Origin: a virus
Lineage: Duplodnaviria; Caudoviricetes
Direction: 5' to 3' (one strand)
Length of the DNA stretch: 64,000 nucleotides
IMG/VR virus record: IMGVR_UViG_3300028833_005988
Coordinates: 1-64,000 of that record
The notes below the pieces were generated by a model. That model did not search any database and had not been told where the DNA came from. It was given only the letters and a program-made list of their open reading frames with translations. The position numbers and the translations under genes were made by a program. Below are positions 849 to 59,361 of the stretch, piece after piece; positions within the stretch are counted from its first letter, which is position 1; every line of letters starts with the position of its first letter.

Positions 849-1415
849 TTACGCTTCCTTTTTTGCAAATTGTAAGGGACCAACTGGAACGGGGCTTTTT
901 TGCACCGCTCCCAGCAGATCGATCAGTTTGGCGTTGAGTCCCTCTGCCTTGGCAATCGTAGCAGCGATATCCTCTGTGCCGAGCAGGGACTGGAAGGTCT
1001 TCAGGGTTTGGTATTCCAGGGAGTGTTCCCGTTCAAAGCCATGCCGGGCGGATGTGGATAGCTGCATGCTGATCATGTCCACCAGGGTCATATCATCCCG
1101 AACGATTTGCAGGATGTCTTGCCACAGCTCGTGGGTAGCTATGACATCATACAGTGTGTAATGGCCTTCGGGCGTATCGTATTCCGCTGTGTTCAGATCG
1201 GTATAGTGAACCAGGATCAGGAAAGCGCGGATGAGGTCGGCGTTGTAGCCTGTGTAGGCGATCCCTCTTTTCTCGTCGAACACCGTGGATGCGCTGACGA
1301 AATCCTATGCCATCTTTTCCTTCTCCGTGTAGGGGATCATGGAACGGACGTGGAATTCCTCGCCGTCCAGACTGAAAACATGGTTATATTCATATTTCGT
1401 GATATCCGCTGTCAT
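849..1415 (-). CDS. Phage hypothetical protein (1 in-frame TAG at 1305-1307)
   Basis: ATG at 1415 overlaps the upstream TGA (ATGA). Frame is open to TAA at 849 except for one TAG (EKMA*DFVS). Confidence 0.65.
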
Positions 1416-1738
1416 TTCGTTTTCCCTCCCAGTATTTTGATTGTGCTCCGGCCGAAGAAACCGGCTAGGTTATTCATGGCTTGGGAACCGCAGTGTTCCC
1501 GCATGTTGAAGGGATTGCTCTTTTCGATCATATCCCATGATTTTTCACAGAAGCTGTTTCCGGCGTAATGGCTGACGGCTTCAAAATTTAACTTGTAGCC
1601 CAGTTCCCGCAGCACGTCGTCGAAGAAAACGGCGCTCATATCGTTGATTCGCTCTTCGTCGATGACGCCCAGGTGGGCGGCGATCATGGCGACGGCACGC
1701 TCCAGCGTTATGCCTTGCGTGCCGTCTGCAGGTTTTTT
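1412..1738 (-). CDS. Tail assembly chaperone C-terminal extension (G-T type, reached by -1 frameshift)
   Basis: The -1 frame is open from the slippery site (KKPADGTQGITLERAVAMIAAHLG...) to TGA at 1412. Confidence 0.6.
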   Translation of the reverse strand, partial: KKPADGTQGITLERAVAMIAAHLGVIDEERINDMSAVFFDDVLRELGYKLNFEAVSHYAGNSFCEKSWDMIEKSNPFNMREHCGSQAMNNLAGFFGRSTIKILGGKTK

Positions 1739-2121
1739 TGTTTCTGCTCCTTTTCGTCAATGCGGTTGACCCGGCGGAAAATTTCAAGCAGTTGTTCAAT
1801 CAAGCCGGTATCCATGCTGTCGTAATTATCCAGGATCAGCTGTTCATCGTCCGTTACGGCGATCAGCCAGTCCATGACCGCCTTGTCTCCGTCACGGTTA
1901 TCGCCGAAGGAGCCAGCTTCCATGGCCAGAATATCCGCCAAAGGATAGATTTCCAGCATCCGATAAAATGCCGCTGTTCGGTTCCGTTGATAGCGCAGCT
2001 TGGTGGGCTTGATTTCAATGAGCTTCCCGCCGATGATCACGGAGTTTTCAGGGGTTCCTACCTGGGGAAGTTCCCGGCTGCTTTGTTCCGCATTCGGCTA
2101 TTCCTTATTCTGTTTGGCCAT
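1708..2121 (-). CDS. Tail assembly chaperone (1 in-frame TAG at 2098-2100)
   Basis: Follows the major tail gene; RBS plus ATG at 2121; MAKQNKE*PNAEQSSRELPQ; ends TAA. Confidence 0.7.
1732..1738 (-). other. -1 ribosomal frameshift slippery heptamer A AAA AAC
   Basis: Minus strand CAA AAA AAC near the chaperone 3' end matches X XXY YYZ; the -1 frame is open downstream. Confidence 0.65.
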
Positions 2122-2181
2122 CCGTATCCTCCTAAAGTTTTGCGGGAGGGAGCGTGGTTAATCACGCCCCCCTCCGAGCAC

Positions 2182-3018
2182 TTAGTTCCAGTTCACGTCA
2201 CCTGTGGTCGTGGTGACGATGTCCCCGTTGGCATCCAACGGTTCATAGGTCAGGTCGTACATTTTTTGGTCAGCGCGCTTGGGGTCAATGGCACTGAAGG
2301 TAACTGCATTGGTCGAGGCGTTCTTATAGCTGTTATCGAACCCCGGCAGGGCGGTCACGCGCACCCGGGGAATGAACAGGTGCAGATACCCCTTGACGGC
2401 GGACTCGGTGCAGTCCGTGCCGCTGGAGTATACGGGCCAATGGGCAAAGAGCGCACCCTTGGCGGTGGTGGAATTGGTTTTCACTGTCGCCACGGAAGCG
2501 CCGTTCACACGGCGGCGGTAGGCCACGCGCAAGGTATCGCCTACATTCACGTCACCTTCCGCAAAGGTGATCTCCGTCTTGGGCGCGCCTTCTCCGGAAG
2601 CGGTGATGGTTACGCTGAATTTCCCGACAGCTGCCTCTGTAGCTTCGGTAAAGCCGTTGATCTTGACAGATCCGGCCTTGACTTCATAAGGCAGGGTGAT
2701 CTTTCGCCCAGTTTCCACGTCGTATAGCTTGCTTTCCAGGGTGGATACGTCGCCCTGCTTCATTTTTACCGCGTTGGCCATGGCGAACATGTCCAGAGTA
2801 AACTGGGAGGAAGCGAAGGTAAATTCCTATCCCTTGTCCGTTTCAATGAAAGCCAAGGGATAATTGCCCTGGCCGCCGGTTACGGACTATGTGTTGTTGG
2901 TGGCGTTCATGTTGGCGGTGTTCACTTCATAGTAGGAGAACACCTGCCCGTCACAGCGCTCGAAATCCAGGTTCGGGTTATCGGCGATATATCCGCCGAT
3001 CTGATCAATGTATTGCAT
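2182..3018 (-). CDS. Major tail protein (in-frame TAG at 2827-2829 and 2887-2889)
   Basis: GGAGGG RBS and ATG at 3018; 279 codons; NNT*SVTGGQG and DKG*EFTF; position before the chaperones; ends TAA. Confidence 0.75.
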
Positions 3019-3046
3019 GGTTGAGCATCCCTCCGTTTCAGTTGGT

Positions 3047-3520
3047 TTACCAGGTGGTCACATAGGAAAGAACGAGATGGTATCGCCGGTAGCCAATAGT
3101 CTTGGCTCCCAAATGATATTCATCCTCGTAAAAAAAGCGCAGCCCGCAGACATGCTCCTTCCACAGCAGCTATTCCTTCAGCCGCTGGGCGATCAGCTTG
3201 TCCCGCCGTTTCAGGCGATCCGCGTCCGCGTTATACAGTACGTCGCTTTTCACATAAACGTCAAAGGCAAGATACTTCTTGGTCACATGGGGCGAACCGA
3301 GCTTTGTGCCTTCCGTTTCATAGTAGATCACACGCACTTCTTCATCTACCACCGGTTCGTCTGGCATGGCATCCTCAATGAAGTACCGATCCAAAAAGTC
3401 CCGGATGCTGCCTCGGTGGCATTCCGGGATACACATCAGGTCTTTCTATTCCACGTCAGTGAACAGTACGTCCCGAAGCACATTGTTCCAATTGTCCTGC
3501 CAGGTCTTTGTTTTCTTCAT
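3047..3520 (-). CDS. Putative tail completion/terminator protein (TAG at 3170-3172 and 3446-3448)
   Basis: ATGA overlap with the upstream gene; TDVE*KDLM and RLKE*LLWK; ends TAA. Function inferred from position. Confidence 0.6.
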
Positions 3521-4074
3521 CGTTTGCTCACCGTCACGTTTCCATAATAGGCGCTGTCCGGCACCGTGGAGAATACCAGCTCCGTGATCTCTCCATATTC
3601 CGTTTCCATCTCCCGCATCGCGTTCTCAATAAACTGATTTCCCTTTTGATTGAAAGCGCCGGGCAGATCATATTCGCTTTTTGCTTGAGAAGGATGTCTG
3701 CCGGAAAGTGCATCATCCCATACCTGCCTGCCCGGAGGGCCCGCGTGAATAGGCGCGCCGCCAACAGCGCTGCCGGAGCCTTCCTCCACGATCATGGCGT
3801 GCACCGTATCGGGCAGATCATCGGGAGAATAGCCAAAATCCATGGACACGCCGCCATCCGTGATAGAGGTGGAGATGTGTTCCAGGTTATCGCTGATAGC
3901 TCTTCGCCATCCAGGTTTGCCTGGTGCGCCGCCATGGGTAGTATGCTGGATTTCCCGCCGCATGTGCGTGACCTACCGCCTGCCCTCTAATTCTACGGCA
4001 TTGACAGATTCCCGCTGCAGGATGGCTATTAAGGCCGCTTCATTCAGTGATAGTTGGTTACAGGGATTCTTCAC
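3517..4074 (-). CDS. Putative neck/tail completion protein (TAG at 3973-3975)
   Basis: GTG start in a GTGA overlap with the upstream stop; one TAG; ends TGA. Confidence 0.55.
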
Positions 4075-4763
4075 GGTTCATCCTCCCCGGCGATCTTCCG
4101 CGCCATCAGGTTCAGTATGCCGTGTTCTTGGGATACGTCCTATTCTGTGCCCACAATGTCCACGATCCTGTACCGGGAATGGAGCAGCCGGAACTCGTCG
4201 CTGACGCGGAGCCGCTTTGTTCTATCGTTCCACTGTACCTGCACCGTCAGCAGATGATCCGCGCTGATGCCGGGGATGTTATAGCCCGCTGCGTAATCCG
4301 GCCTGCCCGCGTACTCCGAAAAGACACAGGGGATGGATGGCGCGATCTCATCGTCATAGGCTTCCCGAAGCAGCATCCCTCTGTTGTCCAATTCTTCGCT
4401 GACGTGGCGGGTAAAGGTGATCATGGCGTTGCACACGATGGCTTGGGTGGTCTGGTTGTTAGGCATATCCTGTACCTGCCAGTTCAGCATAAAAATTCGG
4501 CCATCCTCCCGGATCACGATGTCGCCTTTCTGGATGCGCACGTCATAACTGGTCTTAAAATTGGAATTGGCGTCCGAATTGCCGATCTTGGACTTCCAGT
4601 TGATGGAGAAGTATAGAGCACGCAGATAGATGGACTCATAGCCTTCCGCATCCTTGGCGTACCAATCCCGGATCAGTTCAAAGGTGTAGTTTGCATGAGC
4701 CACATCGGTATTCAGCCAATCCTTAAAGTCTTGTTCCTATGTGGGCGGTATATAGAACTTCAT
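4071..4763 (-). CDS. Putative head-closure/adaptor protein (TAG at 4140-4142 and 4737-4739)
   Basis: ATG at 4763; IPPT*EQDF and VGTE*DVSQ; ends TGA at 4071. Confidence 0.6.
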
Positions 4764-4773
4764 CCTGAAATCC

Positions 4774-5163
4774 TCACAGCAGGGTGAAGCGCACCATTTT
4801 GTAGTACAGGATGCGCTGCCGGTTTAGCAGTTCCGCGATGGTCTGGCTCAGGTTAGCATAGGGCTTATCCGCATTGGTAATGGTCATGGCGTCGGTGGAG
4901 TAGCCCACAATGCGGTTCACATCGCTCTGCACCTGCCGGTAGAAACCGATCTCCGCCGTGGTCAGCACATATTCGTACTCATCTGCGTTCAGGCCGATTT
5001 CTTCTGTCAGACTGTACTGGAAAGCACGGCCAGTCATGACGTAGAGATGCCTGACCGCCTGGCGGACAATCTCCTGATAGTCCTCGTCCGCCATTTCCAA
5101 AGGCGTCTGCTGCCATTCGGTGCGCTGCTTCTATTCGGCGGCCAATTGCTCAATCTCTGTCAT
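4774..5163 (-). CDS. Putative head-tail connector (TAG at 5131-5133)
   Basis: RBS plus ATG at 5163; LAAE*KQRT; ends TGA. Confidence 0.6.
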
Positions 5164-5174
5164 GACCTCTCACC

Positions 5175-5597
5175 TCACTCCGCTTTCAGGAATTCACGCT
5201 CCGGAAGCCGCTCCTGCAAAAGCTGCAGCTTGCTTGCGGGCAAGTCCATTTCAGCGGCTACGTCACAGATGGAATCCAACAGATAGCCTTCCTGGATCCC
5301 ATCCAGCCAGGCTTTCAGCTGCGCCGGACGCTGATTTAGTTTCTTTTGGATTTCTTCTTTGTTCAGTACCGGTTCATCGATGCTTTCAATGAAGCCCTAT
5401 TGAACCGCCAGATCTCGGTTTTCCAGGCGCAGCTGCTTTTCTCCTGCAAACAAGGCCGGGGCCAAGCTGGCGCAATATTCGATTTCATCCTGCGTCATGG
5501 GGGTAAAGGTGCCAGGATGGATCACCCGCTCCATGCCGCTTTGCAGGATAAGGCCGATGTCATATTTGCGGTCATTGTATACTCTGATTTTATCCAT
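5175..5597 (-). CDS. Phage head-associated hypothetical protein (TAG at 5397-5399)
   Basis: MDKIRVYN...LAVQ*GFIES; frame read through by eye to TGA at 5175. Confidence 0.65.
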
Positions 5598-5644
5598 GTA
5601 ACATCCTTTCCGGGGGACGGCGCGGGGCCGCCCCCCCTGCTTCA

Positions 5645-6646
5645 TCAGGTGGTACTGTCCTTGTACACGCTCATGGTGGGCGTCTTGCCGATCACGATGC
5701 CGGCGCCGAACCACTGGTCCAAACGCACTTCATAGGCTAGGTCGTCGATGTTGGTGGATTCGGTGGACTGCACATCGCCCTCGAACAGCACCTTCAGGGG
5801 GCGCATATCCGCGGAAGCAGCAGCGGGCAGGATATACAGTCGCTTTTCATCGATCACAGGGGTCACATTGTCCGCTTGGTAGGGGTTCACCAGGTTGATG
5901 ACCTTGGCACCATAGTAGGTGCCGATGAGCCCGGTGCGGTTGACCTCCTCAATAATGGAAGGCGCGAACTGCTGGGTGGCTGTAGCGGCGGTGAATCCGG
6001 TCTGCTCAGCCAGCTTACTGACGATATAAATATCACCCAGCAGAGCAACAGCGCCGGTGCGCATCCAATGCTGGATCATGGGATTCAGCACGGTCTTCAC
6101 AATACCCGCGCCGGTGCCATAGAAAGGCGTAGACCAGTTGTCCGCTGCGCCGTGCAGCACACTCTGGATGTACTCGATTTCCTTATCGGACATTTCATAG
6201 GCGGCGTCCCGGATCAGGTCGGCCATCTGTACCCTGCCGGTGCGCAATTCATACAGGTTGATCACAGGCCGGGCGGATACCGCGATGGTATCCAAGGTGA
6301 CCTGCTTGTGGGTGATCTTGCTGCGGGCGGGCGTGGCGGCCTTGGCCTGCAGGAACGCCTTGATGCCGTCGATCTTCACCCGGAAAGCGGCTTTTTCCCC
6401 GTAGTTCACGCGCTTGGTGTCCGCCACATGGTTCAGCCAATCGGTGGTGGGCTTCACCATTTCATTGACCGTAAAGCCCACCAGCTGGCCAATCAGATAC
6501 TTATTATGGGGCGTCGGATCAGAAGCCTATTCCGCGATCAGCTTCCCTGCTTTTTCCGCCTGGTCGCTGTCCACGCGCTCACCGTGGGCCTGGGCCACAA
6601 TCAGCTTGACCAGCTTGGAATCATTTCGGATTTCAATGGGAATCAT
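5645..6646 (-). CDS. Major capsid protein (TAG at 6527-6529)
   Basis: 334 codons after the scaffold and decoration genes; LIAE*ASDP; followed by a GC-rich hairpin; ends TGA. Confidence 0.75.
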
Positions 6647-6657
6647 ACTGTATCACC

Positions 6658-7089
6658 TCAGTTCGTTTTCTTGGCGACAGTACCGCCGGAAGCAGGCTGC
6701 ACAGTATCGCCTTCAGCCAAAGTGGAAAACAGAGTGTTCTCAACGGTCATGATGACCTGCTCGCCGGGAACCAGCCGTTTCATACGCACATACTTGCCTG
6801 TGGGCAGGGTGTAATCCGCTTCGTTCCACTCGGCGTTCTCGTCCACTTCCCATTCGTTTTCCACGAAGTACACTTCATCTGTGCCCACGCCCGTCACGTT
6901 CTACCGCAAAGCAGGATTGCCCCACAGCTCGGTCTTTTCCTCCACCCGCATCAAGGTATCCTTGGCGGCGGTGATTTTCTTGACGCCGTTTGCCGTGATC
7001 TCCGCAAACACGCCGTTGGGCAGCGTTTCGCCGGAAAGATTGGCGCCATCGTATACGTGGCCTACCAGTTTGGTTACATATCCAGCCAT
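6658..7089 (-). CDS. Putative capsid decoration protein (TAG at 6901-6903)
   Basis: Two track fragments join in frame across PALR*NVTG; lies between scaffold and capsid genes. Confidence 0.6.
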
Positions 7090-7112
7090 TTCACATTCCT
7101 CCTTTGAGACGA

Positions 7113-8261
7113 TCAAGCCTTGCCCAGCAGATCGTCATATTCGCCCTTGGCGCTGATACCGCCCAGGACATAGTTCGCAACAACAGCCTTAGGCGCACCG
7201 GGCTGCTTTTTATTTGCTTCCGTGATCAGGGCGGCATAGTCCACCTGGGCGATGGCGTTTTTTACCACCTCCGTTTCGGTATCCAAGCCCTGAACCTCTG
7301 CAAAGTGCTGAAGCTCCTGCCGCTTGGCGGCGAGTACAGCGGCTTCCTTTTCCTGCTGCAGCGTTTCCGCCTGCGTCTTATAGGGCGTCAGTTCAGCCAC
7401 TTGAGCTTCCAGTTCTGCAATGCGGGCATCCTTGACCACAAGGGCGGCGTCACGTTCAGCGATTACGGCGTCCTTTTCGGAAAGCTGGGCTTGGACAGCC
7501 GTCAGATCGGCTTCTGCCTGCTGGCATTTTGCCTGGGCCTGCTCCAACTCCTGATTCTTGCCGCGCAGTTCTTCATCCTTCTTGCGCAATTCTTCATCGT
7601 TTTCACTCTTCTGCTCTGCCAGCATCAGCTTGGCCTCCAGTTCAGCGACCTTTTTCTGGTTTTCATCCATCGCTTCATCATCCTCTCTTTTCTGTTGTTC
7701 AGCGACCAGCCGCAGGGCCGTCGCTTCCGGATACGCCGGCACAGAGACCATGGCCATGCCGATCAACTCGTTTCCGTCCTCCGCGTCGATCAGGCAAACG
7801 CCGTTCATCTCTTTGAGACGGCTTACCAAAATCTCAAAAGAAAAATTCAGGCAGCCCTTCTGGTACAAGGTCTGGATCGTTTCGCACAGAACTGGATTCC
7901 GCTTGGGGATCCGTGCCTCGCCGATCAGGCTGACGCCAAACTCATCCTGCGCTTTGGCAAAAGAAAAGAACGAGCCGATCTGCTCGCTCTCAAATAAGCC
8001 TGTTTCCAGATCCTGCATGTGAGTCTATCCCTGCTCCACGCCCAAACGCAGACGGTTTGCGTCCGCGCACTATGGCAGGCAGGTGTATTTGGGGGCATTG
8101 ACAATGATTCTGTCAATAAAAGCCTCCGTGACCGCAAAGCCGTTACGGTTGACGCGGGTGGAAAACATCCGAATGAGCACAGACATATAAATCTCATTGG
8201 ACTGCACTTCGCTCAATTCCACCTGCGACGCTTGGAATACGATTTTCTGGATGGGCATCAT
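7113..8261 (-). CDS. Prohead protease/scaffold protein with coiled-coil C-terminus (TAG at 8025-8027 and 8070-8072)
   Basis: Fragments join via TCLP*CADA and EQG*THM; E/K/A/Q-rich helical C-terminal half; ends TGA. Confidence 0.7.
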
Positions 8262-8287
8262 CTCCTTGCTTTTTTCACAGATCGTCG

Positions 8288-9832
8288 TTATAAGCTGCCT
8301 TCAGGATTTGAGGGCTTAGGCTGCTTCCCAGTTAAGCCCTTGGCAGGATCAGACTTTTTCTCGCTGTCGTCCAAAGCTGGGCGGCCAGTTTTCTTTTCTC
8401 CATCCGAAGGAGCGGTCTGCTCTTTGTTGGATGGGGTTTCCCTCTTGGGCTCGTTTTTCATCCGTTCCTGCTCCTGCTCCATATCGTACCCATGGTTTTG
8501 GAGCATGGTCTTGGTGGATACCACGCCTTTTTCCCATAGTCCGCGGCAGACTTCCTGGAATTTCTGACTCCCTGCCAGATCAACGGGCGGGAAGGTGAAC
8601 AGCGGCACGTTGTCCGGCCTGCTGTGGGTCACGCCTTTTCTGCCAGCTCCGTTGAGCCGGAGATTGATTCTGTTCATGAGCTCGCAGAAATTATCCCGCG
8701 CCTGCTTGATGCGGATGGCCGCGGTTTGCATCGAAACCTGTGCGGACGCGAAATTGCTTCCGTCTTCCGCGCGCCCGCTGACGATAATGCCGGAAATGCC
8801 ACCCGCCGAAAGGATCTCAGCGTTTACGTCTCGATACTTATCATCGTCGAACATTTCCTTGGTGTCCGGCTGGATCACGGTCGCTTTGCACAGATGATTG
8901 GTCGTAGCCAGCGCGGAGCCAGTCATCGCTCGCCGGAACAAAGCGTTTACCGCGTTCAGAGCGGTAATATCCGGCATAATATCCGATTTTGAATCGCCGT
9001 AGGTCACATGCACGAAGCTATGCGCCCCCAAATTCAGCAATGCGGATTCATACTGAGCAATCAGCGCCTTTCGCTTAAAAGCGGTCAGGCAGGTGGCCAC
9101 CATAGGCACTGCGTACCGCGCCCAATCCTCCTTCACATCCTGGAGCACGAAGGTGTTTTCCGGGTTCTATTGCACCCAGTCGTTTCCCTTTTTCAGCGCA
9201 TCCGCAACTTCAGGGGGAAAGCCTTCCAGACGGACTTGCAGATCTTCATCCTCTAAATAATCCTTCTGGGCTTTGGTGCTTTGCTGTTTCATGTCGTCCC
9301 GGACGCTTTTGCAGTTGAACTCCTACACCGGTTCTCCGCCGATCATGACATTGGCGATGCGAATCAGGTGAACGGGGAAGGTGATTAGACTGCCATCCTC
9401 CATAAGGTAAATATATACGTTGGCGTATTTGAAATACTGGAGAAAAATGCTCCGCATCCGATCCTTGAGGCCGATCCGGTTATAGTATTCCTCATACTTT
9501 TGCTTGGTCTGTTCATTGGCTCCGATCTACCGCCAGTCGTCCGCTAGGGCGAAAGGTGTATAAACGCCCTTTACGATCCCACGGAAAAGAGGGTCCTCGT
9601 CCACAAAATAATCGCTCTACTCGTATAGGCTGTTAATGTACCGCTGCTTGTCCCGCAGGATACTGTCGTAATCATAGCTGGCCAGATCGCCGGAAAAGGT
9701 AATGGATTTATCGTTATACGTCATCGTGGCGTGTCCATCGTCCTTCGCGCCTACCGCTATTTCCTTGGGCTGCTATGGCGCGGGTTCATCCCTGGGCTGC
9801 ACGACGCTCCGCTATCTTTGAAACCATCTCAT
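8288..9832 (-). CDS. Portal protein (6 in-frame TAG: 9167, 9323, 9527, 9617, 9773, 9812)
   Basis: 515 codons directly after the terminase; N-terminal half read codon by codon with no TAA/TGA; ends TAA. Confidence 0.8.
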
Positions 9833-9847
9833 GTGCTTTCCCTCCCG

Positions 9848-11506
9848 TTACAGAATGCTGACCACGCCGATGCAGACGTCCTTGGGCTGCATCAGGCGCC
9901 GTTTTCTTTGTTCTTCCATTTCGGCGATATACCGAACCGCCATGGCCTAAGCGGAGTAGCGGTCCTTATGCTGATTGGTTCTGGCAACGTCATATAAAAC
10001 CGTGCTGCCCGCGCTCTGCCGCATGACGATATTGCCCATCTCGATTTGTAATGCATCCGCCTCCAGGAAGATACTCTTTTCTTCCATGGTCAGCTTTTTT
10101 CGCTTGGACTGATCTTCCGAGCTTTCCTACTCTTCCTCTCCGTTTTGTTCCGCGTAGCGGGAATTGACAGGCAGTTCAATGGAGCGCTGCTCCAATGCCA
10201 CCCGCAGGCAGGAAACTAGCTGCTGGTTGATCTGCGCGCTGGCTTTCACGCTGCGCAAAATAGGCACCGCGTTATGGATAATGGTCCTTTCATCATCCAG
10301 CGTCCAGGGCGGGTATTCCTTGCCCGTGCCGGGGTGCGTCCAGGGCTGAGCCAGGAACTGCGGAAATGCGTCGCCCAAGCCCCGATGATCGAACACGATG
10401 CGGGTGATGTGAGGAAAGCGCGCATAGGTTTTTCGCACTTCTTCCGCCAGCGCATCCAGTCGTTTTCCGTGATAGGTGCGCATATACACCTATTTTTTCA
10501 GGAACAGGCTATTTTCCATTTCCACCAGCTTGATCACACAGATCACCGCGTTGTCCGCCTCCCGATCCGAGGATGTGGCTAAGTCCACGCCCATCACGTA
10601 ATCTGACGTGCTGCCGGTGGGCTGGGCGTATTCCACCTGGCGCAGGGTGCGGCATGTTTCCGTCAGGCTATAGGGGAAGGTGCTTCCCGCCTCCGCGCCG
10701 ACAAAAATGCTGCCGTATTCCATGGCAAACTTGGCTTCCGGCATTTTCTTCTGTTCCTTCAAAAAGAACTCCATATCCGTTATGCCCACCCTGGCCGCGC
10801 TGTGATAGTCCTAAGCGCAGGCAAAGGTGGTTGGATTGCCATGGGCAAAGTCCCGCAGCGCCTGCATGAACATGGCGTAATAGTAATTGCTTTTGAGGCA
10901 GGCAGACGTGATGGAAACGGTCTTGCTGGGATAATCCGTGATATTCCGCTGGTGGCAGATATCCCGTTTCGTATTCTTAACAGGCGCGATCACAGCATCC
11001 AGATCGTCCGCCTTGACCTCCGGACTTTCATCGATCACAACGATTTTCGCGCGGTTGCCGCGCATGGTGCCCACCGAAAAGCTTTCGATTTTGGAGCCGT
11101 TCTTCAAGGTGCATATGCCTTTATTCCGAGAAAGCTGCACCGCCCGGTGCCCGTCCGTCTGCACCTCCCGCATGATATCCGGGTTGCGGATGAAATAATC
11201 CTGAATCTTTTTGACGATCTATGTGGCCTGCTCCGCCGTGCCGGATACCACGGCGATCAGGCTGCCGGGATACTACACGCCGACAGCGATGCAGCATAAA
11301 GCCACCAGCCAGGTCTTTCCGTAACCGCGGGATTTGACAACCATCTATGTATCACAGCGTCCGAACTGCCGGGCGACCACCTTCTGCGTATCCTTCTACC
11401 GGATATTAAAGTACCGTTCGATGAAAATATCCAGGTGATCCCGCCAGAATAAGATTTGCTTGGCCCATAGCTTCAGGTTCTTTACATCCCGTACCTGAGT
11501 GATCAT
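9848..11506 (-). CDS. terL: Terminase large subunit (8 in-frame TAG: 9947, 10127, 10490, 10811, 11219, 11273, 11345, 11396)
   Basis: Walker A KSRGYGKTW, Walker B IVVIDE, nuclease GVDLA and HKDRYSA; 553 codons; ends TAA. Confidence 0.9.
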
Positions 11507-12432
11507 GCGTTCATCCCATCCTATCCGATGGCTGCCGTAATGTGGCGGAAATCGTCAATGATGCGGTCAATATGATCCTTGGGAAAGGTTACCTTGGGTG
11601 TATCCTATTCGCCGGACTGTTCAATCTTTGCCACAATAGCCCCAAGCGATCCCAACCCCGCCATATCGCCAGGTTTTCGTTTACAGGCGGCAAAGTTGGC
11701 GCTTTTGGAAAGGTTATCAAAGATGGCCTGCGCTTTTTCCCATTCAGCCACTCCCACTTGGCCCTGCCGCATGCGGTTGTATTTGATGTCCGCGTCCAGG
11801 GAAGCCTTGGCGGCTTTTCGAGCATAGTCCTCGATATTCTGATTGTCCAGCACGAAGCCCTCTTCCAGGCGGGCATAATAATCGTTCAGGTAATCCTATT
11901 CCCGCTGGGTATAATAACCGTTCCATTCCCGGGAGAAAACAAGCTCCTCCTGAGGCTCCTGGCTCTTTTCCGGTTCCTGCATCGCGCTGTCCGCAGCGGC
12001 AGGATCGAACACCTTCTGCGCACCGTCGTCGGTAATATTGGGTTCAAAGTAATACTTGTTAGAAAGATTCATGATACTGAAAAAGGAGCGGACGATGGCG
12101 CGGTTTTCTGCGGCCAGCCGCTTTTCCTCCGGCGCGTTCACATCCAGATAAATGGGATCATTGGCCAGCGTGTACCGCGCCTTCTTCGCGGCCTCCTCAT
12201 ACAGCTTTTCCGACCAGCGGCGGTTATTATAAAAGCAATAAGCCCGCAGGGTATCGTGATCCACGCAGCTTTTCATAGCACAATCCCGGCACCAAGCGTC
12301 ATGAAAGGATTGGCTGGCCCACTCCTTGTTGGTATAGAAGGCGTTCAGCGGCTTGATTTTATTGCAGTATACGCACAGCTTGGAGGTGATCAGCTTTTCC
12401 TTCCGCCTGGAGCGGGCGCTAAATTCAGCCAT
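11503..12432 (-). CDS. Zn-finger protein upstream of terL, possible small terminase (TAG at 11521, 11605, 11896)
   Basis: CVYC...CRDC motif; read-through ends at a TGA overlapping the terL ATG (ATGA). Confidence 0.6.
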
Positions 12433-13594
12433 CCGCGTCCTCCGTATCCTTCAGCAGGATAGGATAAACGCACCGTCTGCCATATCCCCGCTCCAGTACC
12501 ATGGCGGTGGCGCCCGGCTGGCCGCCGTAGCCCAAACGCTGGGCGTAGTCGTCCATGCCGCAGATACTGGGGATCCGAAGGATGAGGGAATTGCCGGATG
12601 CAGTGTAGCCGGAAATCAGCTCCCGTTCCCGGTGCTTATGGCCACACACCATGAAGTCGATCCGCTCATTATATAGCAGCATAGCCTGCTTGGCCGCGTT
12701 TTCCAGGGAGGGAGTATCGGTATCATGGGAGAGCAGGATAGCAAAGCCCTGCACATGCACAAGTTTCCGCCGTTCCACCTGCTCGTCCACCTGCACGGTC
12801 TGAATCCCGCGCAGACGTTCCGCCATATGCCAGAGGATGATCTTCTCCAGGTTCTCGTTTTCGAATTCCCCTTTTTTACTGCCCAGCGGGCGGATCTCCG
12901 AATGATTCCCGTCTACGCCGTATACTTCAATATCCGCGTGAAGAGCTAGGATGCTGACCCAACGCGCCATGTATTCCGCATACCGCATGCAGCTTTCCAC
13001 CACACCCCAGCGCAGACGCATCTATTGGCTGCTGCGAAGCATCCCGTCCAGGGCGTCCCCGCAAAGCAGCAGCACCACATGCCCGATGCTTTCCTTTTCC
13101 AGGATCGCTATGATCTCCCGAAGCAGCAGCGCCATGCGGCGCTTGAAGATTTCCGGGCTGTAAGCGTTCAGCGTTTCATCCCGAAGCCCTTTGATATCCC
13201 ATTCGGCGCCGTAATGACAGTCCGCCACGCAAACGACCAGCGAACGATCCGCATCGTCGCCCGCTGGCACGCAATAAGGGATTTTGATTTCAGGCAGCTT
13301 GGCAGCAGCCTCCGTCACGGCTTGCCGCAGCGCTTCACTACGGTTCTGGGCTCGGTACGCTTCATTGATCTCCCGGCGCAGGTCCCGGAGTTTTTGTTCA
13401 TCATCAGTGGAAGGGAGCGCGCTTCCTGCCATCATTCCGGCATCCGCAGCCAGCCGGATGCCCGCACCCATTTTGCGCTACTGGTCCGGATGCTATCCGC
13501 AGCTGTGCTTTTCGTTGATTTCGCCCCAATCCTAATCTGAAACGCCTGTTACCTTGTCCTATATATCCTGCACCAATGCCTTCTTATCCGCCAT
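12425..13594 (-). CDS. Calcineurin-like metallophosphoesterase (TAG at 13022, 13478, 13493, 13532, 13559)
   Basis: Motifs ADCHYG, GDALDG, DGNH, CGHKH; N-terminus VSD*DWGEI...G*HPDQ*RK. Confidence 0.75.
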
Positions 13595-13598
13595 GGCC

Positions 13599-14336
13599 TC
13601 ACCTCTCAATCTTTGTAACCATCCCTGCATCCAACAAATAACCATCCTGATCCGCAAAAGCTTTGCTACCGTTAGGCAGCAGGATAACCAGGATGCGGTC
13701 CATATCGTACTGATCCCCATACCGCGTTTTGTGTGGCGCATACTTACCGCAAGTGCTATCTACGCAGTATTGCTCATTATCATACTGAAAATCTCCGTTC
13801 ACATCCACCCTACAAAGCCGTATTTGACAGCCGGGGTATTGCTTATGGATCGCCTGCAGCCGCTCAAATCTGGTTGAAGGATGAGCTTTTTCTTTTCGCT
13901 TTCTTGGCTTTTTAAGCACCTGTTCCCATTCACTCAACTGATCCAGAAAGGTATTCAGGCTCTGATTCTCCGTATCACACAGGCTTTGCTGTGTAATCTC
14001 ACTTCCCTCCAGCAAAGAGGAAACGCTCGGAGGACAGTCGGAAGCGTTGATTTCCCGCAAGCGGATCATGGATTCCTTGTAGCTCGTCAGGGTATCCTGG
14101 CTGTCCTCCGGCACATCCCGGAGAAGAAGTGTTCCGCACCGATCCAGCAGCCATTTCACCTTTTTTTCGGGTGAATATGGCGCATCTGGATGTTCACTTA
14201 GCCAGTTTCTGAGACAATAACCTGTCCACGGCTCCAGGATCTATTTGCTGATCAGGTCAGCTTTGTCCTGCTCTTGTGAATAATACAGCGTGAATTTCAC
14301 ACCGTTTGGCAAAGTGATGTTATACCTTGATGCCAT
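13599..14336 (-). CDS. Phage hypothetical protein (TAG at 14241-14243)
   Basis: GGAGGG RBS and ATG at 14336; two track ORFs join in frame across ISK*ILEPW. Confidence 0.6.
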
Positions 14337-14511
14337 CTTTTCTCCCTCCATAAATATTACTTCCGACATGAAGCGCTTTTTCGCGCATTTTTCGAAAAAC
14401 TTTTTCGTGCTCCGAAGCAGTGCTTTGAAAAGAAGACTGCTGCCTATGGACATGTACTTCCGCTATAGACTTTCCTTTCGTCCATAGTATATTTGTCGCG
14501 GTTTTTAAGAA

Positions 14512-14859
14512 TCAATGTTTGCATCTTTTTGTTCCATGAATAACCAGCCATTGCTTTTCGTGCTGGCGGGTAATCCGAGATACCATATTTCTAAAACTCC
14601 GCTCCACTCGCTCTCCGCTTTCTCCATCCTCTTCTGCAATATCCGCAAGCTTCGCGCCTTGCATCTACTGACGCAAAAGGCGAAGCTGAGGAATTGTAAA
14701 CTTACAGTCAGCAATCAGTTGATCCAAGTCCATATAAGTGCAAAGAACCGTCTCCGCAAGATCATAACTCCCATTTGACTCAAATAAATTGCAATTGCTT
14801 TGTTTTGCTAGGTAGGCGGCATCTAATCTGCTTCGTTCTTTGATTAGTTTCGCTACCAC
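14512..14859 (-). CDS. Small regulator with sigma region-4-like HTH (TAG at 14665-14667)
   Basis: IPQLRLLRQ*MQGAKLADIAEEDGESGERV pattern; GGAGG RBS; ends TGA. Confidence 0.5.
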
Positions 14860-15234
14860 CCGTTCCTCCCCCTAAGGAAGATAGATCCAATCCGCATCAT
14901 TTCGCATTTATACTCCTCCTTATATATCTTCTTTTTTATATAGTACAAAATTATTAATGAATTAACCGTTATTATAATATATTATATAATATAAATAATA
15001 AAAGAAATGCATTATTATAGAATAAAATTATGGTACATATGATTATTACTATATATTTATTCTAATATGGGTATGCTCCTTGTTTTCACCTCCTGATAGA
15101 TAAAATGCTGTTTCAAATATAAGAGATGCTTTCTTTCTGTTTTCTTGTATTATAGGAAAATAACTTGTGCCAAACATCGGATTTACGCACTATATGTTGT
15201 GGAAAACTATTTTATTAAAATCCACGAGGTTGAT

Positions 15235-23509: not shown

Positions 23510-24166
23510 ATCGGGTAGGAGGGGGTGGCTAACCCCCGTCCTCCCACATCAGCGCTCATGCGGGCCCGCAAGCGGCGGTTCAGTTGCTGGCACTTGGCAG
23601 CATGTTTGATCGGAAATCGTGACGTTCAGCGATTCTGCCATACCTTCGGTCGCCCACCTATCCTCTGGCAGATATCCTCTATCGAGCAACTGCTTTCAAC
23701 ACGTCCGGTTCCTGACATACTGTATTATCAGCAACCGCCAGGCCCTTCCCTCCATCGTCTTTCACCGACTTCTCTGGTACTATGGCCCAGACTGACTTCT
23801 GGATGTTCAGCCATGCCTCGTTTCCTTGTGCATGGGTTACTCCGCGTGACCGGAGCTTATCATCCAGACCTCCCCGGTTAAGGTGCAACAACCTTCATTC
23901 CATGCAGCCGCCGCATTTACGTGACAGAATCCGGGTAGTATTGGACTTCGGCTTGTGTTGCAGTCTCGTCCGTTCTGCCCCGCCTTTTATGAAGTTTCTG
24001 TTCGTTGGCTCGGAACTTTGCCCGTCAGGGTTGATCATTTCCCCCTGGCATCCGGCTTCCTTCAGATTCCACCTCGCGATGGACACCCTTGCCTTCGGCT
24101 AACGCTTCCTACTACCAAGCGTGTAGTGGACTTTCACCACCAAGTTGTTGCCCATGCCGGGCGTAC
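23510..24166 (-). mobile_element. ORF-less group IIC intron (minus strand)
   Basis: 5' GTACGCCCGGCATGG...GCAAGGGTGTCC...GGAATCTGAAGGAAGC; 3' domain V/VI GAACCGCCG...GGAGGACGGGGGTTAGCCACCCCCTCCTACCCGAT; no RT ORF. Confidence 0.85.
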
Positions 24167-24172
24167 AACGTG

Positions 24173-24210
24173 AAAGACCAACAGACTATTTTTTTAGCCT
24201 GTTGGTCTTT
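24173..24210. terminator. Bidirectional stem-loop serving as target of both introns
   Basis: AAAGACCAACAG / CTGTTGGTCTTT perfect 12-bp inverted repeat. Confidence 0.75.
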
Positions 24211-24214
24211 AATG

Positions 24215-24820
24215 GTGTTCCGGGCATGGTGCAATTCTCGCGGGTGAAAGCCTCGCCACCGGTGGCTACCGCCAAGTGTAGCGAACCGCAAGCCGTTATC
24301 AGCAACGTTAACTGGGGAGGAAGCGGTGTAGCAAAATCGACGAGTCTACGGAAAGAAACTGGATACAAGGCCAAACGGCGGGCAAGGTTGCCACAGAAGC
24401 CGAAGCCTGAAAGGTAGCTGTAAAACCGAAACAGTAAATCCAGAGGTTGTGCGGTGAAAGAATTGTGGCTTATCCCGGGAGGCCTAGTCAGCGAGGTGAA
24501 AACCGAATGTGAAAAAAGCGAGTGACCGGGAGTCAACTGAGGCCATGGTAGGGACTTTGTCCTGAAGATCCTATTGTCGTGGTATTGCAGATCACTGTAA
24601 GTAAGTCAATGATTGCCCGAACATGCAGCGAATGCCAAGGCAAAGGGATCGTAACCCGGAGTGGCAGGAGAGGCGGAGATGCTTTCTTCATTGATTTTGT
24701 AAACAGAATGCGAAGCAACAGGCAGAAAATGTCTGGTATTACACAACGATGTAGCGCCGCATACCTGACCGGTATGTACGGTGCAATAGGAGGGAGGGGA
24801 TTAACCCCTCTCTACCCTAT
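24215..24820 (+). mobile_element. ORF-less group IIC-like intron (plus strand)
   Basis: 5' GTGTTCCGGGCATGG...GGTGAAAG; 3' domain V/VI AGCGCCGCATACCTGACCGGTATGTACGGTGC...GGGGATTAACCCCTCTCTACCCTAT; no RT ORF. Confidence 0.8.
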
Positions 24821-39696: not shown

Positions 39697-40935
39697 GTGG
39701 ATTTTTTTGACGATAAGCTGAACCTGTTCTTCGACAAGGAAATGCTTCAGCGGACGGTCAACGCCTGCGTGGATAAGGGCATCGACCTGGCGGAAATCCG
39801 CTGGTTCACGCAGCCGGAACACCGCATCACTCTGGCCAAGCAAATGCTTGCGGGACAATACCATATCGCCCCGCCGCACATCATTCAGATTCCCAAGCGG
39901 GATTCCACGGAAATGCGGAAAGTGTACTGCAACGAAGCCATGGATCGCTTCATCTGCGCACAGATTGGCAAGGTATATGAGCGGATGTACCATGACCGGA
40001 TTCATCCCTGCTGTGTTTCCTATCAGCACGGTATCGGCGTGGGAAAGATAGTGCGGGAAATATCCGCCTTTCTCGCTTCCCATCCCGGCATGAAAGGCCG
40101 GAAGTACGATATTCACCACTATTTCGATGAAATCAGCGAGGAAACACGGGATCAGGGATTGCGGGAACTGGACTCCGGTTCCTGCATTGACCGGGTCGTG
40201 TGGGAATACCTGCATGACGATCAGGTGATTGATGAGAATGGCGAATTGCAGCATGTTTATAAAGGCATCGCCCAGGGCTTTGCTGTCAGTCCCTTCCTAG
40301 CGAATTACCTGCTCCGTGATGTGGATGAAGCCATCAGCAAGCTGGACGTTCTCTATTACCGGTATTCCGATGACATTCTGATCCTGGGCAGCGACGTGGA
40401 GAAAGCTGAAGCCATCCTCTTCTCAAAGCTGGCGGAGAAAGGGCTGACCATCAACCCCAAAAAGGTGACGGACATTGACGCGGATACCGCGTTCACCTTT
40501 CTGGGCTTCAAAATCCGTGGCGCGGAGATCACCTTTTCCAAAGATACGATCGACCGGCTGAAAAAGAGCATCCGCAGCCTGACCAAAACCAGGAAAGGCC
40601 AGCCCTTGAAAAGTGAAGCCGTTCTGCGGAAAGCGATCCGACAGATCAACCATGATCTGTATATGGCCTATTTGCTCAACGACCGGGAATTTGGCTGGGC
40701 GGAGTATATGTTCGGTACGGTCAATGTTCTGGAGAATGTGCGTATGCTGGATTTCTACATCAAAGATCATCTGCGGCACCTGTACACCGGAAAGTGGAAT
40801 TCCTATGGGAACTACCAGAAGGTGCCCAATGATATGCTGCGGCGGTGCGGATATATCAGCATGGTGCATCTGTACAAGCTCTACAAAATCTCCAAATCCC
40901 TATACAGAAATGAGGTGAGGATGCAGTGCGCATGA
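39697..40935 (+). CDS. Stand-alone reverse transcriptase (412 aa)
   Basis: IPK, DR, YDIHHYFD, GIAQG..VSPFLANYL, YYRYSDDIL, GLTINPKK, FTFLGF motifs and a thumb region; GGAGGG RBS plus GTG. Confidence 0.92.
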   Translation: MDFFDDKLNLFFDKEMLQRTVNACVDKGIDLAEIRWFTQPEHRITLAKQMLAGQYHIAPPHIIQIPKRDSTEMRKVYCNEAMDRFICAQIGKVYERMYHDRIHPCCVSYQHGIGVGKIVREISAFLASHPGMKGRKYDIHHYFDEISEETRDQGLRELDSGSCIDRVVWEYLHDDQVIDENGELQHVYKGIAQGFAVSPFLANYLLRDVDEAISKLDVLYYRYSDDILILGSDVEKAEAILFSKLAEKGLTINPKKVTDIDADTAFTFLGFKIRGAEITFSKDTIDRLKKSIRSLTKTRKGQPLKSEAVLRKAIRQINHDLYMAYLLNDREFGWAEYMFGTVNVLENVRMLDFYIKDHLRHLYTGKWNSYGNYQKVPNDMLRRCGYISMVHLYKLYKISKSLYRNEVRMQCA

Positions 40936-42785
40936 AGTGACGTGCAAAATCAGTCTGGCCGATCAGGACGGCAGGGTTAAACCTCAAATCCGTCTTCTTC
41001 ATCACGCAGGCCAATTCCGCGAAGCGCTGCATGGCCAACGTGCCCAGAAGACCGATCATCGTAAAGCCGTACAGTCAAGACCCATCCCTGAATCCTGATC
41101 ACTCCCTTTTATGGCGCTGCCAGCGCTTTGAGCAGCAGACAGGCACAATCACCGCGAGATACCGCCTCCTGAGGCCCATCTCATCTCGAAGCGGATGAGA
41201 TGCCCCTCCTGAGGAGGTATCCCTTGATCCTAAAGTCATGAAGTAATGGCCCGGCTTGGAAGCTGCTCTAATAAATGAAGAAGGTAACGCCAGTTATCCC
41301 GGCGCAGGGAAACAGCGGTACGTCCGTACACCAATCATGCACGAGCTCCGGATCCTTGTCGTTCGACACGTCGTCAACGCGACGTTTCCTCCGGTCTCTC
41401 TTTCAGGATCCGGAGCTCATTCTTCTATCGTAAAGCTTCTGAAGCATTGCGCAAAAGGAACCGCTGCTGTTTTATGCATCCGGTACAGGAATGCCGCATC
41501 ATGTCCGTATCCTTCACACAGCCGGCTTTCGATCCGCTGAGGCAGTGGATCGCGCAGACCGGCTTTACATCGTAAACCCATGAAGAAATGTACAAAGCGG
41601 AAACGGTGCGGAAATCGCCCGGCGCAGGGCGGCAATGCAATATCCGCAAACATCAGCTTCTGAAATTCCGATCGACATCGCCAGCTCTGGTGCCCAGAAC
41701 CTGATCGGAAGCCTCCCTTTGGTTCTGGGCACATTCGCGGCGATGTCATCCGAATTCAGAACATCGTAAACACTTTCAGTTATGCGCAAGGCGGATGCGT
41801 ATTGCCAGAATCACTCCAGCGCAGGAGCAGCAATGGAGCCGCTGATTTTCAATGAGCTCTTCTGCAGTACGTCGTCTTCTTCAGGGTTTCGAGCTGCCGC
41901 TCGGAGACCTCTCTTACAGCTCGAACCCCATGAAGCAACGACGTACTGCAGAAGAGTAATATCGTAAACCCTTGCAGTCATGCGCCAAACAGCGGAAAAA
42001 TTGCTTCATTATATAGCGCAGGCGCGTGCGTATGCGACGCTATGCCCTTTTTTCAGCATGTCAGTGCGAGTCATTCGCTTCTGCTCAGTGCGCTCTGCGG
42101 AGGCCGCGTCACACACTGAGCTTTGCTCCGATTCACACTGCCCGCATCGTAAAACTGTGAAGAAAACGCGAACAGAGGGCCCGGCGTTGCTGTTCTTTTT
42201 TTCTCCGGCACAGGAGAATGCCGCCATGTCCGCGCCATCAGGCATCCTGCCTTCTGAAGCGCGCGTCACATGAGGAGGTGCCCAGGCCATCGCGAAGGAA
42301 ACCTTCTTATAGTCTGGAGCACCTCCCAGTATCGCGCGCTCAGAAGGCAGGCTACATCGTAAACCTCTGAAGAAACGTGCAAGGCGGAAACGGCGGCAGC
42401 ATCCCATCCGTACAGATGGCTTTTCCCCAGTTTCGAGCTTTATGCGGCATTCGGAGGCGCAAGCGCCTCCTGCTGACCGACGCCTGTATGCCGGCATCGA
42501 GCGACTGGGATGACGGGCATCCCAGTCACCATTTTCCGTCATACAGGCTCCATCAAGCTCGCAACATCGTAAAGAGATGCAGTTCTGTACCGTGCAGGCA
42601 GGTGGATATATCAGATACACGTTTGCACAGACGATTTTGACAGCCGATCCCATTTCTTCAGTTCGGCAGCCGCTCCGGCCGTCGGCAGGCGCCTTTCCAT
42701 TCCGGACACCTTCATTCCAGGCGCCTCGCCGTCGGCCGGATTGGCTGCCTACATCGTAAAGCGGTTGCAGTTATGTGCCAATCGG
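40931..42785 (+). repeat. RT-adjacent array of about 35-nt degenerate repeats separated by unique hairpin-forming spacers (putative ncRNA array)
   Basis: ATCGTAAA at 41058, 41227 (ATCCTAAA), 41427, 41569, 41763, 41961, 42146, 42356, 42566, 42753; spacing 142-210 nt; an inverted repeat precedes each motif. Confidence 0.88.
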
Positions 42786-49734: not shown

Positions 49735-50292
49735 TTAAAAATCCTGCTTTACGTTTGTTGATAATAATACTGATGCAAGACGAAAGTGCTTTTTTTTACT
49801 CAATGGTCGACATTCAACAATTTGTACATAATCACCAATCCTTGCAACCTCATTTTCATCATGTACAAGATAGTTTTTTGATCTTTTAATTTGTTTATTA
49901 TACTTTGGATGGGTAAGGTAGTATCCGTTTTTCACCTTTATTGTCTTCTCCCCTGAAATATTTACAACAAGTCCTTCAAGCACTTTTCTCTTGTTTCTAA
50001 TCTTTAAAGTAAACTCTGCTCCTGGAAGAGGAAGAGTGGGTACATGAATTATCACTGAATGAAAGGCAAGATAATCAATCCATGTTTTTACCATGCGATC
50101 CAGTTCATAATATTCATTTTGAGAAAGCCTATCATATTGATTATAAAAACTTACTGTGTTAAAAAAATTAGCTATTTCGGGAACCATTATCTTTTTTCTA
50201 TCCTCGATGTTAAGGCTGACAAGCGATTTAGCCTTATGTAATAGACGTCTATGAATAAGGCTAAAATCTTTAAAACCCATAAAGCACCTCAC
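49735..50292 (-). CDS. Fusion protein: unknown N-terminal domain plus ribosomal uS17-like C-terminal domain
   Basis: RKVLEGLVV...KTIKV...HPKYNKQIKRSKNYLVHDENEVARIGDYVQIVECRPLSKKKHFRL matches the uS17 signature. Confidence 0.8.
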   Translation of the reverse strand: MRCFMGFKDFSLIHRRLLHKAKSLVSLNIEDRKKIMVPEIANFFNTVSFYNQYDRLSQNEYYELDRMVKTWIDYLAFHSVIIHVPTLPLPGAEFTLKIRNKRKVLEGLVVNISGEKTIKVKNGYYLTHPKYNKQIKRSKNYLVHDENEVARIGDYVQIVECRPLSKKKHFRLASVLLSTNVKQDF

Positions 50293-58504: not shown

Positions 58505-58899
58505 AAGAGGACGAAAGAACAAATGAAACACGAAGATTTTCCAAAAGCATTGAGCAATATTCTGGTTAAGGATGCTTTTAGTATTTAATATGCGCGATGT
58601 CAAGAAAACAATCTATGACGTTTTTTATGGTGATGCTGAATTTCCTGATGAATCAAGTGTTTCAGCTTATCATTGAGAATTTTCGCTTATCTCTATTAAG
58701 CGTAATCCGACAAGAAAAATAGTGTTTCCGATAGGGATACTCAAGGTAGTTGTAACCGCTTTCGGGTTTGCTTCTTGAATTTGCTCTGACATTATTCTCT
58801 CCTATGATGTTTTGCGATTTCGCTTTCCTCGGAACAAATTTCATATTGACGGATGGTCGGTCAACCGATATAATGAGATTATGGAAGGAAGGGATGACC

Positions 58900-59361
58900 A
58901 TGAATTTGCAATCCATGTTGCAGGAGCGCAATATGTCCATGTATCACTTGTCGCGGATCAGTGGTATACCCAAGACAACCGTGATTGATATTTGTTCCGG
59001 GAAAAGCGCCATTGAAGGCTGCACCGCGAAAACGGTTTGGCGTTTATCGCAGGCGTTGGGATGCACGATGGAAGATTTGATGAAAATAGACACAGCACAT
59101 TATGATCCAAAGAGCGGTTTGCCAAAAAGTGACGCTTATCTGGAAAGGGGTCTGCCCGACTATCTTCAAAAATCCATTGCGGCCATGAAAGAATCCTGGC
59201 GGTTGATTGATCAGGGCAAGCAGGATTTACATTGGGATATTTGCTGGAGCGATTTGAATGCTGATATTAACAGCGCAGAAATAGAACAGGAAATATCCGC
59301 AGATCAAGCCTGGTATCTGCGCAGGAAGTATTTGCGAATGGAAAAGGATGATGAAACATGA
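58900..59361 (+). CDS. XRE-HTH protein, candidate antitoxin
   Basis: LQERNMSMYHLSRISGIPKTTVIDIC; ATGA-coupled to the kinase gene; start approximate. Confidence 0.7.
   Translation: MNLQSMLQERNMSMYHLSRISGIPKTTVIDICSGKSAIEGCTAKTVWRLSQALGCTMEDLMKIDTAHYDPKSGLPKSDAYLERGLPDYLQKSIAAMKESWRLIDQGKQDLHWDICWSDLNADINSAEIEQEISADQAWYLRRKYLRMEKDDET

Follow-up and report, generated by a model that had tools for sequence, protein, structure and literature searches.

The window analyzed here, a stretch of 64,000 nucleotides (nt), comprises bases 1-64,000 of the 80,003-base Caudoviricetes record IMGVR_UViG_3300028833_005988, which IMG/VR classes as a provirus and which is ~69% complete. Its minus strand carries, at 849-14907, a late operon of 18 consecutive open reading frames (ORFs) in which TAG appears to be used as a sense codon: when TAG is read through, the 4,515 codons include 40 in-frame TAGs and no internal TAA or TGA. 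The operon contains the following genes.

14512-14907, minus strand: first gene of the operon, weakly sigma-factor-like (PHROG 5767/3512, E 8e-5 and 8e-4); TAG at codons 12 and 81
13599-14336, minus strand: conserved gene without assigned function; TAG at codon 32, an early TAG kept even in low-TAG relatives
12425-13594, minus strand: metallophosphoesterase/exonuclease, homolog of SPbeta YonJ (PHROG 284, E 5e-42; YonJ, E 1e-40); five TAGs, four of them within codons 1-39
11503-12432, minus strand: gene preceding the terminase, at the YonG position, possibly the small terminase subunit (PHROG 3314, gene order); three TAGs
9848-11506, minus strand: terminase large subunit, YonF-like, by homology matches; eight TAGs
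8288-9832, minus strand: portal protein (PHROG 2739, E 9e-25); six TAGs
7113-8261, minus strand: probable protease/scaffold at the YonD position, by gene order; two TAGs
6658-7089, minus strand: putative head accessory gene at the YonC position (PHROG 4147); one TAG
5645-6646, minus strand: major capsid protein, YonB family in relatives (PHROG 4088; PF27364 YonB on orthologs); one TAG, at codon 40
5175-5597, 4774-5163, 4071-4763, 3517-4074 and 3047-3520, minus strand: five head-tail joining genes (YomX_C and YomW Pfam matches on orthologs); seven TAGs
2182-3018, minus strand: tail tube protein, YomU family in relatives (PHROG 2729; PF27173 on an ortholog); two TAGs
1708-2121, 1412-1687 and 849-1415, minus strand: three genes after the tube gene, probable tail chaperones by position; two TAGs

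Most of the small late genes were left unnamed by Pfam and PHROGs. The first gene has one to five TAGs in close relatives, and in relatives Fic and RelB/PIN modules are inserted within the operon. The genes at 1-848, past the operon end at 849, are insert-like, and the tape measure and lysis genes presumably lie beyond the end of the contig.

TAG occurs in 17 of the 18 late-operon genes, the exception being 1412-1687, and the genes terminate at TGA (12) or TAA (6). As the off-frames of these genes contain fewer TAG triplets (34) than TGA (281) or TAA (79), in-frame stops that are solely TAG are not attributable to chance, and random nonsense mutation would not yield such a pattern. Only 755 of 4,533 late-operon codons precede the first TAG under the standard code (code 11), while translation through TAG gives proteins with full-length matches in terminase, portal, capsid-type, tail and nuclease families. 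An earlier interpretation made from the letters of the window (hereafter the sequence-only reading) had described 17 genes with 39 TAGs at 849-14859. That count is exact for the range given, but the operon reaches 14907, where the ATG of the first gene is preceded by a GGAGG site and followed by the 40th TAG at 14874 (codon 12), making 18 genes. Its observation that internal TAA and TGA are absent and that genes end in TAA or TGA was borne out over all 18, and the coupled junctions that it listed (ATGA at 1412, 3517 and 11503, GTGA at 4071) are all present.

A dead prophage with nonsense mutations, or an error of assembly, could in principle produce interrupted genes, and the record is indeed a provirus having a transposase-containing cargo region. 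However, such decay does not account for 40 TAGs against no TAA or TGA. Past the first TAG of each gene, the ratio of nonsynonymous to synonymous substitution rates, calculated against six relatives, was 0.059-0.125, indicating that the recoded genes are alive and under purifying selection. A mutator acting on a dead prophage, which the sequence-only reading had named as a possible refutation, would be visible as an excess of T-to-A changes; there was no such excess, T-to-A being among the rarest synonymous changes. Furthermore, 12 of the TAG positions are shared with a locus from a sheep sample (L012) that is 84% identical in nucleotide sequence, and the recurrence of the same sites in independent assemblies argues against an assembly artefact. 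Selection and recurrence thus exclude prophage decay, mutator activity and erroneous assembly alike, and we give these explanations practically no weight.

The residue encoded by TAG appears from alignments to be leucine (Leu). In the first ten relatives, the residues in TAG columns are mostly Leu, and the relatives' own TAGs face Leu in the window 66 times and glutamine (Gln) nine times. When 19 loci were considered, the window's TAG columns held 73% Leu, 8% isoleucine (Ile) and 4% methionine (Met), with Gln in 1 of 400 residues; for reference, ordinary Leu columns in the same loci held 72% Leu, 6% Ile and 4% Met, and Gln columns 57% Gln. By multiple-alignment consensus, the 39 window TAGs that were scored correspond to Leu in 28 cases, Ile in three and tyrosine in one, with seven unclear and none Gln, and across all loci the consensus of the column was Leu for 272 of 368 TAG calls, Ile for 26 and Gln for 13. 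Since some "full-length" database homologs are translations made with TAG as Gln, an independent test was carried out on low-TAG loci and cultured phages. Restricted to loci almost without TAG to avoid circularity, the log-likelihood of the TAG residue was +51.7 for Leu, +10.3 for Ile and -51.7 for Gln, and in cultured phages with the standard code the terminase positions aligned with TAG are occupied by hydrophobic residues, never by Gln. Leu was the top-ranked residue in 24 of 27 other loci having at least two TAGs, and the TAGs of locus L047 likewise score as Leu. By these alignments, TAG is at leucine positions across both the virion operon and a second, replication operon described below.

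Glutamine (code 15), the assignment in crAss-like and Lak phages, was the obvious rival. It is the sole TAG assignment in Borges et al. (10.1101/2021.08.26.457843), it has been proven by proteomics in crAss-like phages by Peters et al. (PMC9523058), and public gene calls translate one of the relatives, P0023, in this way. Nevertheless, the Gln residues of code-15 calls land on conserved Leu columns, and Gln scored 103 log-likelihood units below Leu. The column tally refutes this assignment, which we regard as extremely improbable. The preference of the sequence-only reading for Leu over Gln therefore stands, supported by the column percentages and by the tRNA presented next. The single-step route from TTG to TAG that it had pointed out is not visible: of 176 Leu codons that occupy TAG columns, 15 are TTG (8.5%) compared with 8.6% overall, in a comparison where synonymous sites are near saturation.

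No tRNA was found in the 64-kb window itself, and the contig as a whole has a single one at default thresholds.

contig 72501-72585 (L001:12498-12582), plus strand: leucine-type CUA tRNA, immediately following dnaE; 85 nt in length, with a long variable arm and an encoded CCA

ARAGORN labels this gene as tRNA-Pyl, a label that follows from the anticodon alone. tRNA-Pyl has a short variable loop, a small D-loop and G73, and the long arm and A73 of the present tRNA contradict it. In the cloverleaf and alignment, the tRNA has U8, A14, A15, U48, G18G19, A20a and A73. In E. coli these elements, including A73, make up the identity set for leucine, and leucyl-tRNA synthetase (LeuRS) there does not read the anticodon (PMC9976931); in Aquifex tRNA-Leu an A35U change retains 82% of leucylation (PMC2377443). 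The U8-A14 and A15-U48 pairs and the discriminator A73 thus match bacterial tRNA-Leu identity, while host tRNA-Ser (G15, G73) and tRNA-Tyr (G15) are unlike the CUA tRNA at these sites; the C2-G71 pair that in E. coli acts against seryl-tRNA synthetase is absent, with G2-C71 in its place. The closest non-CUA matches of the phage CUA tRNA are tRNA-Leu, and its length, long arm and Leu-type D-loop are not those of a short-arm Gln tRNA. The gene lies at the same place in three relatives, and a pattern built from it matches 21 metagenome contigs. Of the two kinds of gene for which the sequence-only reading had proposed searching the full contig, the long-arm tRNA-CUA is thus present; no release-factor gene was found on the ~69%-complete contig. 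Together with the column tallies, these features leave us highly confident in the prediction that TAG is decoded as Leu by the phage's CUA tRNA, charged by the LeuRS of the host.

Alternatively, decoding may be ambiguous (Leu together with some Gln or termination), or the residue may be a similar one such as Ile or Met. The Ile- and Gln-consensus calls (26 and 13 of 368) fit such a view, and competition from host release factor 1 (RF1) would be expected. However, Ile and Met occur at the same rates as in ordinary Leu columns, only a single tRNA is present, and the 8 TAGs in terminase and primase-helicase demand efficient read-through. We consider both possibilities improbable.

Other CUA tRNAs were seen in distant relatives. 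One locus (L010, 56% terminase identity, two in-frame TAGs) has at 5790-5863 a 74-nt short-arm CUA tRNA that is unlike tRNA-Leu, and three more (L046, L048 and L050) have CUA tRNAs of 92, 77 and 83 nt along with short-arm tRNA-Leu genes. The CUA tRNAs of the latter three group apart from that of the phage in a rough tree, suggesting that amber tRNAs may have several origins.

Three further features of the contig bear on the extent of recoding.

contig 64800-77797 (L001:4797-17794), plus strand: recoded replication operon, beyond the window; at least 26 TAGs
36331-63083, plus strand: block of 30 genes of early type, for which the standard code suffices; no TAG among 623 Leu codons
contig 78032-79609 (L001:18029-19606), plus strand: serine integrase; no sense TAG, its own stop being TAG and that of a homolog TGA

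The replication operon encodes an AAA ATPase, SSB, primase-helicase, nuclease, DnaE, a RemA-like protein, ThyX, NrdD, a NUDIX protein and RuvC, and its start adjoins a divergent XRE-type repressor gene. At its TAG sites, relatives have Leu at 44 of 50 non-TAG positions and Gln at one, and in solved structures the residue aligned with the ThyX TAG is the Leu of the V-L-P-N motif. The RemA-like gene (L001:12624-12938, contig 72627-72941) directly follows the tRNA and is conserved in relatives, with one to three TAGs. TAG accounts for 10% of Leu codons in the late operon and 7.5% in the replication operon, compared with 0 of 623 in the early block, whose homologs have one TAG in all alignments. 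Sense TAG in the lytic operons and a TAG stop in the integrase mean that both readings of the codon occur in one genome, and NCBI table 16 is ruled out as a genome-wide code by the termination of the integrase at TAG. The recoding that the sequence-only reading had assigned to the morphogenesis operon is accordingly upheld there and extends to the replication operon outside the window, with the integrase keeping TAG as a stop. We put at roughly 0.9 the probability that this phage, temperate and SPbeta-like, infects gut Clostridia and uses two genetic codes, as predicted from comparative sequence analysis.

Close relatives were binned in eight metagenome-assembled genomes (MAGs) of Clostridia (Aristaeellaceae, Ca. 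Faecivicinus) from sheep and human gut. Such binning would be compatible with a host that itself reads TAG as Leu, the phage merely matching it. However, intact RF1 was present in the five MAGs tested, and, by a crude count, 20 of 129 long host ORFs terminate at TAG; no match to the CUA tRNA was found in the MAGs, which are incomplete genomes, and the phage integrase stops at TAG. A recoded host is thus very improbable. A search of the five MAGs for the integrase gave no match at E 1e-60, and thus yielded neither an integration site nor flanking host sequence.

The position of TAGs within genes may be informative as to their role. In the late operon, 17 of 40 TAGs fall within the first 45 codons, compared with 6.9 expected (0 of 20,000 shuffles), and in relatives 44% of TAGs are early, compared with 13-19% of other Leu codons. 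All 19 recoded loci keep TAG at position 36 or 40 of the capsid gene. In low-TAG relatives, the TAGs that are kept lie at the 5′ ends of the first genes in the operon, and these relatives have CUA tRNAs of their own. These patterns lead us to consider it likely, with clear reservations, that early-clustered TAGs act as a lytic translation gate. In the mechanism that we propose, the host LeuRS, which in bacteria reads A73 and the tRNA core and not the anticodon, would charge the CUA tRNA, and the charged tRNA would outcompete host RF1 at UAG. Because the tRNA gene sits inside the recoded replication operon, beside the divergent repressor gene, the tRNA would appear only once the lytic program and the replication operon are transcribed, and late mRNA leaking in the lysogen would give short abortive peptides.

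Several observations weigh against this picture as a whole. The presence of at least one TAG in 17 of 18 late-operon genes is not above chance (p = 0.15), and in most relatives TAG is missing from several genes. TTA is also 5′-biased in the window (6 of 15), but not in relatives. Scans for promoters and terminators gave results not clearly above shuffled sequence. As to the residue, the 13 Gln-consensus calls of relatives come from about four variable columns in which CAG is one step away, and the relatives' loci are not independent samples. The missing part of the contig could hold a release factor or a second tRNA, and the link to a host comes solely from MAG binning, which is no proof of host.

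Some of these points would fit a different history, in which TAG is indeed Leu but only as a seventh codon for that residue, tolerated and spread by drift once a suppressor tRNA existed, with no regulation. Many TAG sites turn over between relatives, the number of genes with TAG is that expected by chance, and partial read-through could make early stops cheaper and so give rise to a 5′ bias. Drift is less easily reconciled with the absence of TAG from the early block when the two lytic operons use it for 7.5-10% of Leu codons, although that avoidance could be plain constraint. In addition, the 5′ bias in relatives is specific to TAG, and the early TAG of the capsid gene survives a change of site. 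We regard drift alone as possible but doubtful, and a lytic gate as the better account of the position of TAGs.

The remainder of the window contains features apart from the recoded operons. The late operon and the early block are separated by ~21 kb of low-GC cargo (15000-36300), a region that spans ~3.5-5 kb in relatives. The genes of this cargo encode ECF-sigma-like, anti-sigma-like and secreted proteins, a metallo-beta-lactamase-fold (ComEC-like) protein and a DDE transposase, and it contains a 300-nt repeat in three copies and a 24-nt inverted repeat at 24165-24218 (within 23510-24820). At 39697-42785, an intact reverse transcriptase (Pfam RVT_1), with 71% identical homologs in relatives, is followed by non-coding DNA that holds nine exact copies of ATCGTAAA, spaced by ~140-370 nt; the locus looks like a reverse transcriptase with an adjoining repeat array. 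On the minus strand at 49735-50292, a ribosomal protein S17 domain (Pfam E 7e-26) is fused to an N-terminal part of 106 amino acids. No match to this gene was found in any fetched relative locus, and it is therefore probably not required for recoding. Two long early proteins of 721 and 808 amino acids (53929-58504, plus strand) had no Pfam or PHROG match, and a helix-turn-helix-like gene with a HipA_C-domain protein in the early block (58894-60248, plus strand) is likely a toxin-antitoxin pair.

Approximately 25 related loci, of human and ruminant gut origin, have the TAG=Leu code in common, and their annotation is affected systematically. Relatives are either fragmented or given Gln at Leu sites, and coding density cannot separate the two codes: among the best 120 terminase matches, 88 are one 383-amino-acid fragment ending just before a conserved Leu column, and more distant relatives (about 60%) were deposited as TAG=Q translations with Gln on conserved Leu columns. 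We somewhat favor the broader view that an SPbeta-like family widespread in Clostridia of the human and ruminant gut uses a natural TAG=Leu code outside eukaryotes, in which a leucine amber tRNA switch licenses replication and virion assembly. Its distant members, with few N-terminal TAGs and distinct CUA tRNAs, may show steps from a gate on the first genes to recoding of whole operons; the terminase tree is a quick one with long outgroup branches, from which no order of events was drawn. Such a family would provide a one-gene model of the proposed recoding switch that can be tested directly, as well as a set of leucine amber suppressors shaped in nature by competition with RF1.

Among cultured phages, the SPbeta-like group (SPbeta, phi3T, Tsamsa-like phages, Clostridium c-st and C. 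difficile LIBA2945) has a serine integrase and the same arrangement of YonJ/F/B and YomX/W/U homologs. The best cultured terminase matches are Clostridium c-st, Tsamsa-like phages and SPbeta (25-29% identity), and DnaE is ~41% identical to that of Tsamsa-like phages. In contrast to these relatives, which are annotated in the standard code, the present phage is distant, uncultured and associated with Clostridia. Membership in the genus Spbetavirus was rejected, as only two late proteins match SPbeta (tblastn, 26-28%); the phage has an SPbeta-like module. A suppressor of similar kind is the E. coli supP amber suppressor, a tRNA-Leu with a CUA anticodon that is charged by the host LeuRS. However, supP is a laboratory mutant on which no genes depend, whereas here ~66 codons in essential genes depend on the CUA tRNA.

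UAG is reported to be read as Leu in chlorophycean and chytrid mitochondria (table 16) and in phyllopharyngean ciliates (PMC11687900, PMC6551751, PMC6131824). In these codes the other stops remain, as in the phage, but the eukaryotic codes are genome-wide and constitutive, while here the code would apply only in the lytic operons of a virus whose host cell uses the standard one. The huge phages labelled "code 16" by Al-Shayeb et al. also read through TAG, and the label is that of the NCBI table assigning TAG to Leu; in that paper the residue is left unresolved (TAG to X) and the word leucine is absent from the text (PMC7162821). The statement of the sequence-only reading that no TAG=Leu phage is known agrees with our literature search, in which no published report of one was found, subscription journals being mostly outside its coverage.

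The closest parallel is with the stop-recoded gut phages, namely crAss-like, Lak, Agate, Sapphire, Garnet and Topaz phages, which use code 15 (TAG=Gln) or code 4 (TGA=Trp) (10.1101/2021.08.26.457843; PMC9523058). In phages that differ from the code of their host, Borges et al., whose screen covered codes 4, 11 and 15, reported solely TAG to Gln and TGA to Trp (10.1101/2021.08.26.457843), and the present clade could be concealed within the TAG-recoded Firmicutes phages of that study. A Leu assignment would contradict this view as well as its rationale, which invokes a special promiscuity of glutaminyl- and tryptophanyl-tRNA synthetases; since LeuRS ignores the anticodon, a leucine suppressor requires no new enzyme. 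Like the phages of Borges et al. and Peters et al., the present phage has a suppressor tRNA, recoded structural genes, a TAG-free integrase and a proposed switch between lysogeny and lysis; its putative host, linked to it by binning, probably uses the standard code as well. In contrast to them, its replication operon is recoded too and its tRNA has a type II Leu body. Phage recoding by suppressor tRNA and the idea of a switch are thus already known, and what differs here is leucine as the residue.

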